Shown here piece by piece: positions 573-60,336 of a DNA stretch of 64,000 bases. A model generated the notes under the pieces. It saw only the letters and a list, made by a program, of their open reading frames with translations, searched no databases and was not told where the DNA came from. A program made the translations under genes and the position numbers. The stretch comes from an uncultured virus (IMG/VR IMGVR_UViG_3300023180_000043). Lineage: Duplodnaviria > Heunggongvirae > Uroviricota > Caudoviricetes. Position 1 is the first letter of the stretch. Every line of letters starts with the position of its first letter. The DNA lies in the IMG/VR virus record IMGVR_UViG_3300023180_000043. The stretch is one strand, 5' to 3'.

Positions 573-871
573 CCTCTAAATCCTCTGAATCTGGCATCTT
601 TTGCCTTTTCCGTAATACGCTCTGCGCGTGCTTTATTAATACTCTCTAGGTATTGTTCCTCAAGAGCTTGTACTTTCTCTTTAATCACTTCCTTATGATC
701 GTCAAATGAAACGGTCGGATCCTGTCCAACCATCTCACTTGCAAGGAAGTCTACCAAGATGTCTCGCATTGCATTAACACGAGCCACCATTTTCCACTGT
801 TGTGTTGGTTCCATAGGCGTACCTTTCAGTAGTCCATCGAGTCCAGTCATCTTCTTATCTTCATTAGGCAT
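569..871 (-). CDS. hypothetical protein (100 aa)
   Basis: Operon packing with short overlaps. Confidence 0.75.
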   Translation of the reverse strand: MPNEDKKMTGLDGLLKGTPMEPTQQWKMVARVNAMRDILVDFLASEMVGQDPTVSFDDHKEVIKEKVQALEEQYLESINKARAERITEKAKDARFRGFRG

Positions 872-4451: not shown

Positions 4452-4494
4452 AATGTTTCCTATATTTTCATTACTGCGTAGATTTTGTTCCAAC

Positions 4495-4773
4495 ATGGTT
4501 TACACAAACCAAGACTCGCTTTCTGTAGAACAGTTCAGCTTTATCTTCGATGGAACAGGTTTACAGAAGGGTAAAAAAGTTAAGTTGTTTGAGCTCTCCT
4601 TCTCAGGCAATCCTGAAAGTTGTGCTGTATCGATATCCAAAAGAGAAACAGAGCTATATCATTCCCTGCATTTAAAAGGGAAGATATATACTCTGTTTAT
4701 GGGTCCTATGGAGTACAGCAATGGTGTTATGCGAGTTCGATTAGGTATCGCTGTTGGTATTCACAGGCGCTAA
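4495..4773 (+). CDS. hypothetical protein (92 aa), lone rightward gene
   Basis: Fills an otherwise empty 4497-4740 gap; globular-looking sequence. Confidence 0.55.
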   Translation: MVYTNQDSLSVEQFSFIFDGTGLQKGKKVKLFELSFSGNPESCAVSISKRETELYHSLHLKGKIYTLFMGPMEYSNGVMRVRLGIAVGIHRR

Positions 4774-5064
4774 CTCCTTTTCGGGACAAGGGGCTAATAC
4801 ATCCTTTAGAACATTGTGCACTCTCCAGCTTTCAAACTCCGATGTGGATAGATTTGACTCGTCGGGATTCCAGAAGTTACAATAGCTTGGATCATGTATA
4901 CATCTGACGCAGTTACTACTAAGCCATTTGTGGAACCAGATAGGCTTATCAATAACATAGTTTTCTGCCAAGAGAGAAGCTACTGCAGAGGAACATCCTA
5001 AGTCTGTAGCCACCTTTCTTACAATCTGTTTTATGATAATCTCCGATGTGAGTATTGTTTTCAT
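4741..5064 (-). CDS. hypothetical protein with Cys cluster
   Basis: GGAGGTG SD, ATGA coupling, CVRC..C motif. Confidence 0.7.
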   Translation of the reverse strand: MKTILTSEIIIKQIVRKVATDLGCSSAVASLLAENYVIDKPIWFHKWLSSNCVRCIHDPSYCNFWNPDESNLSTSEFESWRVHNVLKDVLAPCPEKELAPVNTNSDT

Positions 5065-6371
5065 GCCTCACCTCCGAGCATCGCATTCTGCCCAAGACGA
5101 TTCCCCGCATAGTATCCAGCAATCTCGTCCGCGGTTACTCCATACAGAGTTCCCTGTGGTTGTTGCATTAGATACTGACGATAAACCTCAAGCTGCTTTG
5201 ATCCCATTGTAACCATAAGCTTTGGAATGCTTACACCATACTGATCTGTCTCAACCTTTAGGTGAGGACACTCTTGATTAAGGCAGGTTTGGCACTTACT
5301 CATCATATTTTCACCAGATAGATCAAGCACTTGTACATTCTGTGAAAGCTGATCTGCACAGTTACTGCACATAAAAGTACTACCTTGGATATCCATATCG
5401 ACGTGATACTGAGAGGTACACCATAGATTCTGACCACAGTTTGAGCAGGTTCCTACTGGCCGATCTGTACAGATCATCTTCAAAGGATCCAGCAAGTCAG
5501 AACCTTCAATGCATCCTTTAAGAGCAAAGAGTGTTTCCTTACACACTAAAGGTGTATTCTCCAACGCCTCTTCTTGCTTAAACTGCGCAAACGAGTTGTA
5601 CAGCTCCTCTGAGTGGACAGACCATGAAGGACCTACTTCATACTTAAGATAGGCCAAGGCTTCTTTGATTAGCCCTACCTTTTTCATCATCTCCTGATTC
5701 GTATTATCTCGAATGTCAAAATCTGGCTCTTCTTCTAGTGGTGACAAGTCTGGTGGCGGGGTGGCATTGAAGGAGTGCAGGAATGCCATCTTGTAATCTT
5801 TCTCATTACAGCAGGAAATGATGTGTGAATGGTCACACAGGTAGTCCATACCGTATGAATCACACATCCACATAAGAGTTGCCCATACGGCACGTTCTAC
5901 CGCTTCGATTGGTGGTTTTGAAACCCGCAACTGAGGACAATATGTATCACGAATAAATGACACGATCTCAGTTTTCTCCATACTAGAAAGCCCTGGGTGG
6001 TTCCGTCGAACAGGAAACATAGAAGCAGACTGGTCATCGCGAAAGATCTTGTAGAATGATGGATCCATCTCAGTAGATCCAGCTCCTACGTACTTCCAGA
6101 CAGTCTTGTACTCTTCTCCCGAATGAAATGTGCTGGTATAGTAATACGGCCACCAGCCCGTAATCCGTACCCAGTCTACTGTAGCGGTGATACAGACTGG
6201 GATCCATAGTGGATCAAACTGAGTTATGTCAAACCCGAAGGTTTCACTCAGCGTGTCTGTTACATAGTTCATGATGGCTCTGGGTGGCAACCATCCTTTT
6301 CTGCTTTGCATTGCTCCTATCATTTTGTTGATGGCAATTTCGTTTTGTTGTTGTTGGCGAGTTAGTTGCAT
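5061..6371 (-). CDS. hypothetical protein (436 aa) with C-terminal multi-CxxC zinc-binding region
   Basis: AAGGAG SD; CSNC..C, CSNC and CQTC..CPH motifs. Confidence 0.85.
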   Translation of the reverse strand: MQLTRQQQQNEIAINKMIGAMQSRKGWLPPRAIMNYVTDTLSETFGFDITQFDPLWIPVCITATVDWVRITGWWPYYYTSTFHSGEEYKTVWKYVGAGSTEMDPSFYKIFRDDQSASMFPVRRNHPGLSSMEKTEIVSFIRDTYCPQLRVSKPPIEAVERAVWATLMWMCDSYGMDYLCDHSHIISCCNEKDYKMAFLHSFNATPPPDLSPLEEEPDFDIRDNTNQEMMKKVGLIKEALAYLKYEVGPSWSVHSEELYNSFAQFKQEEALENTPLVCKETLFALKGCIEGSDLLDPLKMICTDRPVGTCSNCGQNLWCTSQYHVDMDIQGSTFMCSNCADQLSQNVQVLDLSGENMMSKCQTCLNQECPHLKVETDQYGVSIPKLMVTMGSKQLEVYRQYLMQQPQGTLYGVTADEIAGYYAGNRLGQNAMLGGEA

Positions 6372-6400
6372 GGCAGCTCCTTACTGATGCAGGGTGATAT

Positions 6401-6502
6401 AAAAAGTAAAAAAGAAACGGGAGATGGTGTGTCCCTCAACACACCACCTCAAGGACTAGGTCCCTCAACCTAGTCCCAGCAGTCCTTACTGCTGACCCTC
6501 AT
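6401..6502 (-). ncRNA. putative structured RNA: three tandem hairpins with (A/G)AGG(G)A apices, followed by a U-tract
   Basis: Stems at 6477-6494 (7 bp), 6453-6476 (9 bp) and 6421-6450 (12 bp, with a pair that is G-U only on the minus strand); two identical UGAGGG loops; poly-U at 6401-6417. Confidence 0.6.
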
Positions 6503-6506
6503 TTCT

Positions 6507-6854
6507 TTAAATTAGCCCGTACTTTCTAGATAGAACCAGATAAAACTCTTTCCAAAAGTCGCTAATTTTCTCTGAGGAAATACCTAAATCATCAAAATCT
6601 TCCGCTTCTTCAATTGCGACTTTTGCCTGAGTAGTAACTACCGATTTGACAGTACTATAAGCTTTTATAAAGGAAAATTTATATCGCTTCTCCATCTTTC
6701 TAGCCCACAGCCCACTCTGCTCTTCAGTCAATAGAGGCACATGTAACTTTTGGGTCAAAAGATTTATAGCGGCGATGATCTCTTGTTTGTCATTTAGATC
6801 AACTGTAATCGCTAATCTATGAATTTTGGGTGTTCTTGTTTCAACTGTTTTCAT
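6507..6854 (-). CDS. hypothetical protein (start adjusted to MKTVE)
   Basis: GGAG SD upstream of ATG at 6854. Confidence 0.75.
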   Translation of the reverse strand: MKTVETRTPKIHRLAITVDLNDKQEIIAAINLLTQKLHVPLLTEEQSGLWARKMEKRYKFSFIKAYSTVKSVVTTQAKVAIEEAEDFDDLGISSEKISDFWKEFYLVLSRKYGLI

Positions 6855-6909
6855 ACGCACTCCGTATGTATAGATTATGCCCGTACAACACACTAGGGGC
6901 GTTTGTTAC

Positions 6910-6953
6910 TGTGTGTCTAAAATACTTATTCCACATTTGTTTTTGTATTTGTA
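6910..6953 (-). promoter_or_regulatory. putative phage promoter, copy 1 (TACAA-N17-GAATAAGTATTTTAGACACACA)
   Basis: 22-nt near-identical repeat with 7448-7469, upstream of a leftward gene. Confidence 0.6.
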
Positions 6954-6955
6954 CG

Positions 6956-6994
6956 AAAAAAAGAGGGATGCTTGCGCAGAGCCCTTCTTTTTTT
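6956..6994. terminator. intrinsic terminator-like hairpin flanked by A7 and T7 tracts
   Basis: AAAAAAAGAGGG...CCCTTCTTTTTTT just downstream of 7004..7393. Confidence 0.65.
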
Positions 6995-7003
6995 ACGTCG
7001 TAT

Positions 7004-7393
7004 TTAATACAAGTCCTCCCACTGATCATAATAATCAGCCATGTAGCTATCCACCTCTTCTGCAAGGGCTCTGTACGGCTCAATGCCCCAATCATACGCT
7101 TCAATGTATCGCAGACGTGCAATTTGCTCCGCAAATTTCTCCTGTAGACCAAGGTCTAGGCCGCATCGTGCATCGTGCGGAATTGATTCCTTAAGAGAGT
7201 AATATTCGTCTGCCATCTCCGATGGACACTCTTTTTCACAGAGTTCCCAGCTCATGTCGGGCATTACAGTCAGTACGTAGTACTGGCTGTTCAAGCAGAT
7301 TTTAACTTTGTTCTTGATATCTTCCTGTACAGCTTCTAAGCTGTCCAAGATGTTTATCGCTGCTGCTGCTTCTAACACAACATTTCTTAACAT
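7004..7393 (-). CDS. acidic hypothetical protein (start adjusted to MLRNV)
   Basis: GGAG SD before ATG at 7393. Confidence 0.75.
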   Translation of the reverse strand: MLRNVVLEAAAAINILDSLEAVQEDIKNKVKICLNSQYYVLTVMPDMSWELCEKECPSEMADEYYSLKESIPHDARCGLDLGLQEKFAEQIARLRYIEAYDWGIEPYRALAEEVDSYMADYYDQWEDLY

Positions 7394-7447
7394 GATAAGC
7401 TCCAAAAAATGCTCCCAACCATCACACCGGGAGGCTTTATAATATTA

Positions 7448-7491
7448 TGTGTGACTAAAATACTTATTCTAAAAAATACTTTTTTCTTGCA
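7448..7491 (-). promoter_or_regulatory. putative phage promoter, copy 2 (TGCAA-N17-GAATAAGTATTTTAGTCACACA)
   Basis: Repeat of 6910-6953 with the same 17-nt spacing. Confidence 0.6.
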
Positions 7492-8912: not shown

Positions 8913-9012
8913 GGTTTTTGAGAAAGTAACGAAATCAAAAATGACAGGGATGGAGAAGGAGATTCTTAAGTTTTACCTGTTTCATTGTATAAAGGGTACT
9001 ACTGATGAATAA
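8815..9012 (+). CDS. small hypothetical protein overlapping the previous gene
   Basis: GAGGTG SD at 8805-8810; fills the 8913-9004 gap. Confidence 0.5.
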   Translation: MIVVKAKDPEHAKLPVKQLLQKVVEPEVERASRVFEKVTKSKMTGMEKEILKFYLFHCIKGTTDE

Positions 9013-9271
9013 AGAGCAGAAAATAATTGAAGAGATCATACGAAGTCTTGTTGATGAGAAAGAAAAAGTTGAGGTCACCTGTACGCTTACTAGCCACACA
9101 GCTGTATATGATATTAAGGTTGCCAATAAAGATGTTGGGAAAGTTCTTGGGAAAAAGGGAGCATACGCAGACGCATTACGTACCATTTTTGGAGCAATAT
9201 ACGGAAAGTCTGGAAAGAAACTACACTTACAGGTATATGTTGAGCCTAAAGTCCAAAAAGAAGTAAAGTAA
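9005..9271 (+). CDS. khpA: KH-domain RNA-binding protein, KhpA/YlqC-like
   Basis: 88 aa; IIRSLVD..V.V....V...DVGKVLGKKG...ALRTI with GxxG loop, matching KhpA architecture. Confidence 0.85.
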   Translation: MNKEQKIIEEIIRSLVDEKEKVEVTCTLTSHTAVYDIKVANKDVGKVLGKKGAYADALRTIFGAIYGKSGKKLHLQVYVEPKVQKEVK

Positions 9272-23616: not shown

Positions 23617-26487
23617 ATGACACCAGACTTAAGAGGGCGTCTATTAGCGCAATACATGTACGATGAGTTAGAGAAGATTGCTTCGAAGTTCCCTAAGGTT
23701 ATCTCATCGTTGCCTAAGGTTATGGCTAAGTTTAGAAAAAAATACCCAGGAGGGTTGCCCGAAGCTCCGTCCCCCCGCGCACCTTTCCTACCAACCTACA
23801 AGGGACCGCTCCCAAAGACGCCGCCTAAACTACAGACCCAACAAGCAGGTCAACAGGCAGTCAGTCCGGTACAATCAATCCCATCGGGCGCAAAAGGCTC
23901 TACACAACAAATGCCAGATCTAGATAGTAGGATAAACGAGCTGTCTCAGAAAATTAGAGGCTCAGAAAATCTTTCTATGCAAGAAGTAAAGAAGATGAAT
24001 GACGAACTTAGGGCATTAAGACAGCAAAGATCCGAAATGCGAAATGCCTCCCCCACCCAAGCTACTTCAAAAGATGGTTTTGATCCAATACCCGATCGCA
24101 CAGACGCTATGGAATACCCTAAAAGGATAGACGGTAAACTTACGCAGCCCGATTGGCCTCTTGAGCAAACTGTAAAGCTAAAACGTAATCCGCCATCGAA
24201 TAAACCTCCTGCAACTAAAGCCACTGCAGCTGAGACTCCACCTCCTCCAACTAAAGCCCCTACGCCAACTTCAACTAAATCTACTTCGAAGCCGGGGACT
24301 TTTGAACCAGATGGATCCGTTCCGATGATACGACGCGACCCAGGCCCTGGGCCGGATAAAAATCCTATTTATGAAACTACTGAACATCTTCGTAGAATAG
24401 ATGATGAGATAAAAACACTTTCGGATGATATCAGTAATGCGGATACCTTGTTTGCGGATTTAAAAGGGGATGATCGCATGTTTAGGGACATGAAAGCTTT
24501 TGCTGCTAAAAGAAATAAACGAAAGATTGAAGCCTTAGAAGCAGAAAAAAACGCACTACAAAATCCCTCACCTGAGGCAAAAGCCAAAGCAGTGTCAGCT
24601 ATAGATGGTGAAATACAAGAACTTGAGAAGCAGATTGCCGGCAATGAAAGGATTCTGCAGCGAGGCGACTATCCAGACGGCAGTGATGTTAATCTTATGA
24701 CTCAGGAGATTAATGCAGAGCTTAAGCAAAGAGTAGCGGAGTTTAAGATACGAAAAGGAATAATAGAAGGCTCCTCAACTAAACCATCTCCTCCAACTTC
24801 AACTAAACCTGCTTCAGAGTCGCTTGAGCAAACTGTAGAGCTAAGACGTAATCCGCAGTCGAATAAACCTCCTGCAAAATCAGAGCCAGTCGAAGAGACA
24901 GCAGAGATATCTAGACCATCAAATACAAAAAATACTTCCAAGCCGTCTAGCGAGACGACTCCAGCAGGGCGGGCACAAGAGGATGATGTCTTTGCTGACT
25001 TATGGAACGATTTTACCACGGGTACTACAGGGCCTGTTAAACAAACTGGGAAACCAATAAATGAGGCAACGGCAAAAATCGAACGACCGATGACTAATCA
25101 AAGAGCCAAACAACCCGAACGCTCAAATGACTCTTTTTTCGATGCGGATGATGTTACCCAGACAGGAGCTATTCCAGGGGTTACTGGCACTGCATCAAGG
25201 ACCCCCTCTCAAATTATTGGTGATTTAGATCAAGCAGCACTGCCCAGGGGTGTTCAAAGACAGGAGCTATTCCGTGCCGCGGATAGTGGATTTATCACAG
25301 GGTCTATGGCTCAAGAAGTTATGAGTAATCCCCAACTTGCCCGGCAGCTTGAAGATGCGGGTGTTGTTATTAATCAAAACTTTGGTGACGACTTCGCAGC
25401 CAGCTTAAATAAATATAAACAAAGTGGCGCTCTTGATGATATGCCAGCCGGAGAGTATACACCACAGATGTTTGACAATGTGAGGCTTAAAGCAAGGTAT
25501 TCAGGAGACGTTATAGAAGAGGGTGACGGCCTAATTCGAGACAACTTGGGAGAAGTAATTGGAGAAGTTTCAGAAAACGGCGGCTATAGAATCTTCGATC
25601 AAAAAGAGAAGTCTGTTAGTCGACTGGTAGAGGATATTTCTAATGGGAACAACAAGTTAACCACTCTTGCTCCAGGAGCCGAGATCTCTGACGATGCATT
25701 ACAGCAGGTACTTGTTAAAGCGAATAAGACCGAACCTGTCAACTTTACAACTGTAAACTACGGCGGGCAGAAGTATGTTGTAGATCCAAACAGCGGGAGA
25801 ATTATTGGCAAAAAAACAGAAACGGGTATTCAAGGTGTTGATCCAAGAGAAACTAAACCATTAAAAGAGCGCTTAGATGCAGCCAGCCGAAACTCCTTGC
25901 CGGTGCCGGAGGGTAATAACGGTCTATACACAAGAGACCAGCTTTCTCAAATGAGTCAAGCAGAGCTGAGTGTGATTCCAAGGTCAGAGGGCGGTAGAGG
26001 TGTTCAAACTTTAGACGACTTTAAAGCACTGGAGCGGGAAGCTCAAGAAGCAGATAGACTTTGGAGACAGGCAAGTGAGTTACGCAAAGGCGGCCCTAGA
26101 TACCAGGCCGAGCTTGAAGCTTTAAATCAAGAACGTAAGGCTCTAAGACGAGAATACGCTGAAGCCCGTGAAGAGTTAAGTGCAACACTGCTTGAAAGAA
26201 GAACGGATCAACTTAGAAATAATGCTGGAGAGTTTGGTCAAGAGATAGAAGAGTCTTTGAAGTATCTTGAACAACGTAAAGTTCCTTTCTTTGAAAATGC
26301 TCCCCTTGTAGGGGCTGGAAAGGGATATGTTACACCACCAACCCCTGGCGGTATCTTAGGTGACTCTTCTGGTACCTCTAAGGCATTGGGTATTGGTGCA
26401 GCTGGTCTTGGTGCGTATGCATTACTTAGCGGAGGGGAAGACTCTTCTGGAAGTAATAATTACGGTGGGCAATATGGTGGCTACTAA
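23617..26487 (+). CDS. 956 aa Pro-rich/coiled-coil protein with YDELEKIA leader and C-terminal hydrophobic helix
   Basis: Long ORF, internal repeat, terminal ALGIGAAGLGAYALL. Confidence 0.85.
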   Translation: MTPDLRGRLLAQYMYDELEKIASKFPKVISSLPKVMAKFRKKYPGGLPEAPSPRAPFLPTYKGPLPKTPPKLQTQQAGQQAVSPVQSIPSGAKGSTQQMPDLDSRINELSQKIRGSENLSMQEVKKMNDELRALRQQRSEMRNASPTQATSKDGFDPIPDRTDAMEYPKRIDGKLTQPDWPLEQTVKLKRNPPSNKPPATKATAAETPPPPTKAPTPTSTKSTSKPGTFEPDGSVPMIRRDPGPGPDKNPIYETTEHLRRIDDEIKTLSDDISNADTLFADLKGDDRMFRDMKAFAAKRNKRKIEALEAEKNALQNPSPEAKAKAVSAIDGEIQELEKQIAGNERILQRGDYPDGSDVNLMTQEINAELKQRVAEFKIRKGIIEGSSTKPSPPTSTKPASESLEQTVELRRNPQSNKPPAKSEPVEETAEISRPSNTKNTSKPSSETTPAGRAQEDDVFADLWNDFTTGTTGPVKQTGKPINEATAKIERPMTNQRAKQPERSNDSFFDADDVTQTGAIPGVTGTASRTPSQIIGDLDQAALPRGVQRQELFRAADSGFITGSMAQEVMSNPQLARQLEDAGVVINQNFGDDFAASLNKYKQSGALDDMPAGEYTPQMFDNVRLKARYSGDVIEEGDGLIRDNLGEVIGEVSENGGYRIFDQKEKSVSRLVEDISNGNNKLTTLAPGAEISDDALQQVLVKANKTEPVNFTTVNYGGQKYVVDPNSGRIIGKKTETGIQGVDPRETKPLKERLDAASRNSLPVPEGNNGLYTRDQLSQMSQAELSVIPRSEGGRGVQTLDDFKALEREAQEADRLWRQASELRKGGPRYQAELEALNQERKALRREYAEAREELSATLLERRTDQLRNNAGEFGQEIEESLKYLEQRKVPFFENAPLVGAGKGYVTPPTPGGILGDSSGTSKALGIGAAGLGAYALLSGGEDSSGSNNYGGQYGGY
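24160..24877 (+). repeat. 55-bp intragenic direct repeat (24160-24214 and 24823-24877)
   Basis: 51/55 identical; encodes LEQTV.L.RNP.SNKPPA. Confidence 0.9.
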
Positions 26488-27380
26488 TGAACGGACACTG
26501 GAGAAAACTAGGACCCAACCAAGAAGGTAAGGATCAGTACGGTTCTACTGTTCGCGGTAAGACTTGGGTACGCAGAGGGGGTGCTAAAAAAGCAGATCTC
26601 GTACTTTCTGTACCAACAGAGCTTAAGGATAAACCCAAGAAAAAAGAAGTTCCACAGGTTTCTAGTAAGCCAACTCCAGCCCAGCAAGATCTCATTCTAT
26701 GGAATATTTGGAAATCTACAGGAGACGAAGACGATCTTGTAAAACTGATGGATCGTTTTAACGGATCTGTTGCACGTATTAAGTATACTTTTAAGGATGC
26801 ACCTGTCCCTCCTTCTGTTATTGATGCCGCTTGCAATGTTGCGGTACTTGAAGCCATAAAGTCCTACAACCCCTCTGGTGGAACCACATTAAATACATGG
26901 ATCAACCGCCGTTTGAAAGGTGTCGGTAAAGTTGTTGGTAAGTATCAGAATGTGGGCAAGATCCCTGAGCATAGAAGGATCGCAATTGCAAAGTATAAAG
27001 AGTCGATGGAAGATCTAACAGAAAAGTTAGGTCATCCACCTTCAGCGCAAGCCCTTGCAGAAGACTTAGGCTGGAGTATCACAGAAGTTACTAGAATGGA
27101 GACTGAGTTAAGTCGAAGAGACCTTATCGCTTCTCAAAACTTTGAGGCAGACGAGGTAGAGCATCTTGCAGATGAAGCCTTTGAAAAGAGAGTATTTAGA
27201 CGTGTATACTACTCATTAGAAGATGAGCATGAACGGCTGGTCTTTGAGTATACTGCAGGGTATAATGGGAAACCAGAGTTAAGTGCTGGTGAAATTGCTA
27301 AGAAACTTAGTATACATCCATCTAAAGTTTCTAGAATTAGAAATAAGATTGGAAAGATGTTTGAGGAGCGTGGGTTATGA
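26487..27380 (+). CDS. sigma70-family sigma factor (SigB/F/FliA-like regions 2-4) with N-terminal extension
   Basis: EAIKSYNPSGGTTLNTWI (r2), LGHPPS..LAEDLGW (r3), EIAKKLSIHPSKVSRIR (r4 HTH). Confidence 0.85.
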   Translation: MNGHWRKLGPNQEGKDQYGSTVRGKTWVRRGGAKKADLVLSVPTELKDKPKKKEVPQVSSKPTPAQQDLILWNIWKSTGDEDDLVKLMDRFNGSVARIKYTFKDAPVPPSVIDAACNVAVLEAIKSYNPSGGTTLNTWINRRLKGVGKVVGKYQNVGKIPEHRRIAIAKYKESMEDLTEKLGHPPSAQALAEDLGWSITEVTRMETELSRRDLIASQNFEADEVEHLADEAFEKRVFRRVYYSLEDEHERLVFEYTAGYNGKPELSAGEIAKKLSIHPSKVSRIRNKIGKMFEERGL

Positions 27381-59532: not shown

Positions 59533-60336
59533 CTAACAAACCTGTACGGCTTTTTCCAGTGAAACACCTGTTTGTTCTGACATTAATAATGCCTTCTCTG
59601 CACGGGCTGTTGAAATCAAGAACTTATCGGACACCTCGACAATACGGTGCAGACGGGCATGCTCTTTTAGTACTGATTCTCTAAGCACAGTGTGGTACTG
59701 AGCGTTGGGCAAGCCTAGCTGTTCTGCAAACTTTCTTAGGTCTTCGATACTTAATAACTTAATGTCTGCAGTAGAGAGTTTGGCCGCAACAGGGATCTTA
59801 AGATCTACTTGATCTACCCCAACACTCTGCGCAGCAAAGATAGGGCTGGAAAGCATTTCTATCACGATACCCAATTTTGATTGTAACTGATCTAGTTTTG
59901 CGAGTATCATACCTGTTACGGTATTCTCACTGTTCAAGACAAACTCAGACATAGGATCGAAAGGAATCACCAATTCTGAATTATCGCCATCATTATTCCC
60001 TTCACTATACACTTCAGTGCCCACACTAGGGCGCTCTTCAACCACATTTTGAACTCCAATCTTTGCCATTATTTCTTCTATGGCGAACTCTTTATTACCA
60101 CCCTGGGGAATAGAGCTTCCACTAATACTGCGATTAAGTCTTTGTAACTCTCGCATTCCTAACGATCTTAAAAACTGCTCGTTAAAGACCGTATCCTCCG
60201 AGTAACGACCAGCAGGGTCGTACTCTTTCTGGTAGTTCTCGCCAAGGCGCTCTTCCCATTCAATTATTATGCCCTTGTTCATGAATGTATAGAAGAATTG
60301 TTCTACTAAACTCTTTTGTACTCTTTTCTGTGTCAT
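59533..60336 (-). CDS. hypothetical protein with Rho-N/HeH-like segments
   Basis: LSIEDLRKFAEQLGL motif; AGGAG SD. Confidence 0.7.
   Translation of the reverse strand: MTQKRVQKSLVEQFFYTFMNKGIIIEWEERLGENYQKEYDPAGRYSEDTVFNEQFLRSLGMRELQRLNRSISGSSIPQGGNKEFAIEEIMAKIGVQNVVEERPSVGTEVYSEGNNDGDNSELVIPFDPMSEFVLNSENTVTGMILAKLDQLQSKLGIVIEMLSSPIFAAQSVGVDQVDLKIPVAAKLSTADIKLLSIEDLRKFAEQLGLPNAQYHTVLRESVLKEHARLHRIVEVSDKFLISTARAEKALLMSEQTGVSLEKAVQVC

Follow-up and report, generated by a model that had tools for sequence, protein, structure and literature searches.

An RNA element whose two long hairpins carry an identical ten-base tip occupies the 135-nt gap between a 115-aa and a 436-aa gene of an uncultured marine tailed phage. 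The 64,000 nucleotides analysed here, hereafter the window, are part of this phage and also encode baseplate J, a sigma factor, ThyX, RusA and an SNF2 helicase. Two syntenic relatives, L002 and L003, were recovered together with the window's own contig in one metagenome-contig scan, and the element is real, conserved, uncatalogued and limited to three known phages. We see about an even chance that it is a cis-acting 3'-end or terminator module in which a dimeric protein, distinct from CsrA, binds both tips and so sets read-through or mRNA stability. The first-pass annotation had interpreted the region as a candidate sponge or leader switch displaying ANGGA motifs to CsrA/RsmA; the conserved, structured gene-strand RNA, the protein-binding-like character of its invariant tips and its 3'UTR/leader position held up, but the display of ANGGA as a CsrA/RsmA sponge did not. 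The parts of the element and the genes on either side of it are as follows.

6507..6854 (-): 115-aa gene, upstream; all-helical structure model (pLDDT 82.6)
6496..6508 (-): closing stem, 5' arm; begins within the stop codon (6509-6507) of the 115-aa gene and ends in AGGG, kept in 3/3 phages
6477..6494 (-): hairpin 1; 7 bp, AAGG loop; of all tips the one most like a CsrA site, AAGGA being freed at a cost of 1.45 kcal/mol
6453..6476 (-): hairpin 2; 10 pairs with the invariant tip at 6469-6460; L002 and L003 have entirely different stems
6421..6450 (-): hairpin 3; 13 pairs, invariant tip 6440-6431; terminator-like stem, with 4 G-U pairs in L002
6401..6421 (-): conserved CCCG and U-tract; includes the closing-stem 3' arm (6419-6411); putative termination tract
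6367..6391 (-): hairpin at the RBS of the 436-aa gene; AAGGA lies open in its loop and the start codon is base-paired
5061..6371 (-): 436-aa gene, downstream; unnamed family; peptidoglycan-binding-like domain around 210-290, C-terminal part with invariant Cys pairs

The three hairpins originally proposed for the minus strand were recovered at 6494-6477, 6476-6453 and 6450-6421, followed by the U-rich tract that had been placed 3' of them (6417-6401, minus strand). The 151 nt of the minus strand from 6370 to 6520 fold at -60.5 kcal/mol (z -4.79, equalled by 0/200 shuffles); the plus-strand fold is likewise better than its shuffles (z -4.63), though less stable by some 11 kcal/mol. Among 2,556 segments of 102 nt covering both strands of the 64 kb, the element has the lowest energy (-49.2; next -42.5). 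The stems of hairpins 2 and 3 share no sequence and bear identical loops, as had been claimed, and the hairpin 3 stem has one G-U pair, in agreement with the G-U-only pair described earlier, plus the U-G that closes the GAGG tetraloop. Absent from the first reading was a closing stem, pairing 6508-6500 with 6419-6411 or in an alternative AGGG/CCC register, which yields a four-way junction. Closing stem and U-tract form a three- or four-way junction that starts at the stop codon of the 115-aa gene.

All three phages have in common the position of the element, the AGGG before and the CCCG after it, the closing stem and the U-tract. The tips are spaced 25-32 nt apart, and a C/G-rich spacer of 2-6 bases leads from hairpin 3 to the U-tract, the first 9 nt of which hold 7 U's in the window, 7 in L002 and 5 in L003. 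Hairpin 1 is identical in L002 and absent from L003. Set against the pattern of an intrinsic terminator, a G+C-rich hairpin with the U-tract within 0-2 nt, hairpin 3 was called terminator-like in the window and L002, not in L003 (2/3), and the L003 fold reached only z -1.35 over the tested span.

The initial reading had been made to depend on loops conserved in relatives. This conservation was found: the sequence GUUGAGGGAC forms the tip of 6/6 long hairpins in the three phages, two per phage, and always consists of G-C, U-A and U-G pairs beneath a GAGG loop. Its ten columns are the sole invariant ones in the six-hairpin alignment, a set of three members only whose counts are not independent. 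By comparison, the 436-aa protein is 86% (L002) and 60% (L003) identical to that of the window, and the four-fold sites of its gene are 31-40% identical among the three phages, near saturation.

The covariation analysis that had been proposed as a check gave a divided answer. In the six-hairpin alignment, double changes were observed at 8 of 15 pairs, 84.6% of 78 cells were paired, compared to 44-55% in six slid controls, and the covariation score was reached by 0/500 shuffles; the structure counted was derived from the same sequences and L002 closely resembles the window (81% in the element), so that these figures overstate independence. RNAalifold on the unedited alignment, conversely, retained hairpins 1 and 3 but not hairpin 2, and its covariation term was unfavourable (+1.23). 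Furthermore, G-U pairs stabilise the gene strand over the opposite strand in 8/8 hairpins, most clearly in hairpin 3 of L002 (-17.4 for the gene strand versus -6.3 for the opposite strand), and this asymmetry argues for RNA. Taken together, the compensating stem changes and the added G-U pairs point to an RNA on the gene strand.

When a model constructed from the six hairpins was run over both strands, it recovered these and, above 13 bits, otherwise just the mirror of hairpin 3. Each phage carries exactly two tips, and no further convincing one turned up in the 64 kb, a number in keeping with a ligand that acts locally at two sites. Searching viral contigs for the exact hairpin-2 pattern gave 0 matches. 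A tandem-tip pattern gave 17 matches there, with a best model score of 18 bits; all of them are unrelated, falling in coding sequence or coding tandem repeats and lacking twin hairpins. Protein-led locus searches brought up two new relatives, both from metagenome contigs; viral contigs and genomes yielded none (one locus was spurious), and the three loci from a KhpA-led search were without synteny or motif. At gathering score, Rfam matched only a tRNA over the window, and up to E 10 nothing relevant appeared in it, in L002 or in L003. No cultured-phage match was found for the 436-aa, 120-aa and 1010-aa proteins or for the intergenic DNA, and no host was found; nine salt-marsh sequencing runs contain at least half of the window's words, and three of these are possible sources.

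We then considered whether the element could serve as a CsrA/RsmA target or sponge, which we judge unlikely. According to this proposal, the 3' end of an abundant early mRNA, or a fragment processed from it, would titrate host CsrA through AGGGA/AAGGA tips once two weak pairs have opened; alternatively, CsrA would repress the 436-aa gene by way of hairpin 1 and the RBS loop. ANGGA is indeed present in every tip, as was claimed, and in the RBS loop. The GGA spacing of 22-32 nt approximates the 21 nt of the Campylobacter jejuni flaA leader, itself an mRNA sponge in the available part of PMC4894983, and open AGGGA and AAGGA pentaloops bind RsmE well in the sections available of PMC4005645. In those same sections, high-affinity binding of the CsrA type needs ANGGA open atop a stem, a buried GGA binds in the mM range and extra loop-stem bases lower affinity. 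In the element the motif is buried: freeing AGGGA costs about 3.4 kcal/mol (2.9-3.5 in 6/6 conserved tips), the 63rd percentile of the window's 499 ANGGA sites and no better than one of them taken at random. The key point is the caveat given at the outset: the final A of GGA, described there as paired in the best fold, is so at every apex (probability unpaired 0.04-0.10; 0.04-0.05 in 6/6 conserved tips), and opening gives an 8-nt loop. The two U's that bury AGGGA are invariant in 6/6 tips though the stems have turned over. Changing them would free AGGGA without stem cost, yet both are retained, and selection therefore seems, from the alignment, to keep the tip closed.

The number and distribution of sites also weigh against CsrA. 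Apical ANGGA motifs number three in the window, three in L002 and two in L003, the conserved sites being only two, and RsmZ binds up to five dimers per RNA (PMC13287468, accessible portion). A look-alike of hairpin 1 does exist at the RBS of the downstream gene (6386-6374, minus strand), and both sites are accessible in the window and L002 (1.45 kcal/mol for hairpin 1, 0.02 for the RBS site), but the mimicry is missing from L003, as is hairpin 1 itself; the RBS hairpin is similar in L002, and L003 has a different SD-sequestering fold. The suggested Rfam search for CsrB/Rsm relatives found no Csr/Rsm family in the window, L002 or L003, whether at gathering score or with E values up to 10, and no CsrA or ANTAR domain was present among the 62 window proteins scanned. 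As for a separately transcribed decoy sRNA, the element begins in the upstream stop codon, a scan for sigma-70-like sites found none between that stop codon and the element, and RNA contigs, which cannot show ends, are not locally enriched there. Should CsrA nevertheless bind, the element would represent phage use of half-buried, tunable sites. Elsewhere in the window, at 703-741 (minus strand) within a 100-aa gene (569-871), a 17-bp hairpin presents CAGGA in its loop, as a CsrA-like site of the textbook kind would.

Four RNA runs contributed 20 short pieces (18 of them shown) over 18 kb, patchy, at a depth of 2-6, and possibly DNA; the lack of cover elsewhere carries no weight. One 272-nt RNA-library contig corresponds to 6371-6642 and spans the upstream gene, the whole element and the next start codon; it is compatible with read-through but might derive from DNA, and neither strand nor ends can be read from contigs. 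A supposed enrichment in small RNA was discarded, as this small share consists of pieces scattered over 18 kb and is not a discrete sRNA signal. No promoter for the 436-aa gene was seen in the 44-56 nt past the element. Two further candidates were rejected: a leader peptide, because only in L002 does a GTG within hairpin 3 share the reading frame of the next gene, an arrangement that is not conserved, and pairing of the loop to a conserved cis target, because a perfect CCCUCA occurs downstream in L003 only and the near matches elsewhere are not homologous.

Upstream of the 115-aa gene, the region contains a pair of related leader modules with a terminator between the two units.

6879..6931 (-): leader module 2; promoter-like box with conserved ATAAGTAT, followed by 6916-6911, which pairs in pseudoknot-like fashion with hairpin loop 6893-6888
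6956..6994 (-): terminator; A-tract, hairpin and U-tract between the two leader units, in 3/3 phages
7412..7469 (-): leader module 1; paralogue of module 2, before a variable 129-aa gene

The corresponding pairs lie at 812-871 and 1317-1370 in L002 and at 2433-2488 and 2890-2946 in L003. After the ATAAGTAT box, a seven-base stretch can pair with the loop of the next hairpin in 6/6 leaders. This pairing is kept in 100% of 42 cells, with one A-U/U-A swap between paralogues and spacings of 17-21 nt, and in L003 two stem pairs of leader 1 have both partners changed. Shuffling provides a weaker control in this case, with 3/500 reaching the score and 254/500 the pair count. Judged by their sequences, the leaders look like a 5'-terminal H-type pseudoknot, and a DNA operator is less likely because the spacing varies. 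These covarying pseudoknot-like leaders are a second uncatalogued motif, with no Rfam match, only two copies in 64 kb and 0 matches in a pattern search, and leader 2 is likely the source of the element-carrying transcript. The 5' arm of hairpin 3 (window 6450-6431, minus strand; L002 1794-1813) is unchanged between these two phages, the 3' arm having four changes, and shares GUGUGUUG with the loop of leader 2 in both, not in L003. Through GUGUGUUG, this arm could also pair with the 5' end of the transcript. The gene between leader 1 and the first terminator (window 7004-7393, minus strand; L002 883-1260; L003 2475-2726) differs among the phages, a variable cassette slot with conserved flanks.

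The proteins encoded nearby were examined next. The C-terminal half of the 115-aa protein, whose family has 6 members, resembles the C-terminal domain of ribosomal bL12 without reaching significance: the best Foldseek row (E 2.7) and five of nine HMM rows (E 0.26-1.2) are bL12 C-terminal domains, none of them significant. Domains of bL12 are known in phages (PMC6375957, available part). The 436-aa family comprises 18 representatives at E below 1e-30; its peptidoglycan-binding-like domain aligned over 73 residues (Z 9.7, rmsd 2.0), with a Pfam match in 1/5 members. In this family (310-460 aa), the domain is inserted in the five closest members and absent from most of the distant ones. Structure models of the two flanking proteins gave no RNA-binding fold, a missing match that excludes nothing. 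On the other strand, at 9005-9271 (plus strand), lies a KhpA-like KH protein with an intact GXXG loop, whose 19 close homologues form a distinct group. A 106-aa gene at 4453-4773 (plus strand) stands amid minus-strand genes and is conserved in all three phages; as it faces the unit, the element directly heads only one or two genes. Further away, a 267-aa protein (59536-60336, minus strand) near the sigma factor and tRNA-Arg has a weak Rho N-terminal-like segment (E 0.005), making it a possible nucleic-acid-binding factor, and a second sigma-like protein (Sigma70 region 3) is encoded among plus-strand genes at 26487-27380 (plus strand).

The favoured reading, a cis-acting 3'-end module, can be formulated as follows. 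A short transcript would start at the promoter-like box (6931-6917) and carry the pseudoknot-like leader, the 115-aa gene and, at its 3' end, the element. Once the ribosome leaves the stop codon, the RNA would fold into the three- or four-way junction, in which the last hairpin, the closing stem and the U-tract may act as a leaky intrinsic terminator and 3' protector. The two long helices would hold out the tips, identical by conservation, to be read by a two-site, probably dimeric RNA-binding protein other than CsrA. Candidate readers are the phage KhpA-like KH protein, the 115-aa or Cys-rich 436-aa neighbour and a host factor. Binding would set either transcription into the 436-aa gene or the lifetime of the mRNA. 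A bolder version, tentative and to our minds improbable, makes the element a phage-specific attenuator of a new class: the GAGG-tipped junction would be a sensor read by the KhpA-like KH protein or, riboswitch-style, by a small ligand, and would work with the 5' pseudoknot-like leader, such that an early mRNA capped by structure at both ends gates the next gene. The accessible part of 10.64898/2026.10.12.757534 gives no defined hairpin or RNA motif for KhpA.

Several other functions were weighed. The tips might be recognised by an endoribonuclease specific for both sequence and structure, which would cut the 115-aa message apart from the downstream one and leave the ends protected. Such a processing role, which we hold to be rather unlikely, would account for the intercistronic position, the long stable helices, the invariant tips and the lack of a visible promoter in the 44-56 nt past the element. 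Processing signals usually recur between operon genes, as T7 RNase III sites do, but here there is one site only in 64 kb, and one RNA contig bridges it, though contigs cannot show ends. It is still less likely that the structure acts as DNA, being a hairpin or cruciform signal such as a phage-polymerase hairpin promoter, an origin or a recombination site, and we consider this very improbable. The combination of invariant tips and variable stems is characteristic of hairpin promoters of the N4 type, the downstream gene has no obvious promoter, and on the opposite strand, too, the fold is better than that of shuffles (z -2.0 to -4.75). Against this, the accumulated G-U pairs keep pairing on one strand only, the element starts at a stop codon and ends at a U-tract, and no RNA polymerase subunit was found among the 62 proteins scanned, the 64 kb seen being part of a 105-kb contig (of a relative or the same phage).

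An ordinary terminator or 3' stabiliser whose hairpin was duplicated locally, the identical tips reflecting duplication and a stable tetraloop, is likewise highly unlikely in our view. The anatomy is terminator-like, and 10-mers repeated within 45 nt are not rare (22 at 10 loci in the window). However, the stems of the two copies have no sequence in common, the tips are the same in all three phages although silent sites are nearly saturated, and the loops of the neighbouring terminator at 6956..6994 differ among these three phages. We also envisaged an RNA switch controlling termination without protein, in which the identical tips dock on each other, a small molecule or an ion. Two stem-loops with identical conserved tetraloops match the description of guanidine-II in the available text of PMC5558903, the junction brings the helices together, and a U-tract follows directly. 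Nevertheless, GAGG loops are not self-complementary, the downstream gene has no metabolic annotation, and neither suboptimal nor truncated folds yielded a mutually exclusive expression platform; four G3 runs occur in 3/3 phages, but no quadruplex is predicted, and a G-quadruplex was rejected. This switch appears quite improbable.

Phage RNA regulatory elements beyond model phages are poorly catalogued, and the element offers a small defined motif, two 10-base tips, with three candidate phage proteins within 2.8 kb. If the KhpA-like protein binds it, the family would gain a defined RNA site, the first structured one, its target recognition being poorly understood in the part of 10.64898/2026.10.12.757534 available to us; without an identified ligand, the element is a lineage-restricted motif. 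We found no description of this motif or of a phage CsrA sponge in the literature searched, which left out most subscription journals.

The element can be placed relative to four groups of known systems. Like CsrB, CsrC, RsmY, RsmZ and the C. jejuni flaA sponge, it has ANGGA at hairpin tips spaced 22-32 nt apart and an RBS with an ANGGA loop nearby. It departs from the CsrB/RsmZ type in its paired last A, in ten invariant bases instead of a GGA core, in its long stems and two conserved sites, and in being situated in a 3'UTR with no promoter detected and no Rfam match. With intrinsic (Rho-independent) terminators it shares a G+C-rich hairpin followed by a U-rich tract right after a stop codon; the multi-branch junction, the CCCG spacer before the U-tract and the sequence-invariant loops, for which plain terminators have no need, set it apart.

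The closest architectural parallels are found in guanidine-II (mini-ykkC) and in the targets of ANTAR proteins. Guanidine-II, as described in the accessible portion of PMC5558903, also pairs two stem-loops of variable sequence with identical conserved tetraloops, the loop being ACGR; in the element the loop is GAGG, closed by U-G in 6/6 and without an Rfam hit. Moreover, the element is enclosed by a closing stem with a U-tract after it, and its downstream gene is not guanidine-related (the 436-aa protein has a peptidoglycan-binding-like domain only). The dual hairpins bound by the ANTAR proteins EutV, NasR and AmiR are read by a dimer and share with the element tandem hairpins, conserved six-base loops with closing pairs, a G at loop position 4 and an adjoining terminator (PMC3369931, sections available); the six-base loop is present in 3/3 phages as UGAGGG if U-G is counted as open. 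By the rules in those sections, ANTAR targets have A1 and G4, and the element has U1 and G4 in 6/6; they are mini-stems with a 5-12 nt linker, whereas the element has stems of 6-13 pairs and a 1-2 nt linker. Their second hairpin overlaps the 5' arm of the terminator, while that of the element is itself the terminator-like stem, with no separate overlapping terminator in the folds, and the 62 window proteins scanned include no ANTAR protein. Not represented in Rfam, the element is a twin-hairpin cis-element that fails the definitions of both ANTAR targets and guanidine-II and is built like them.
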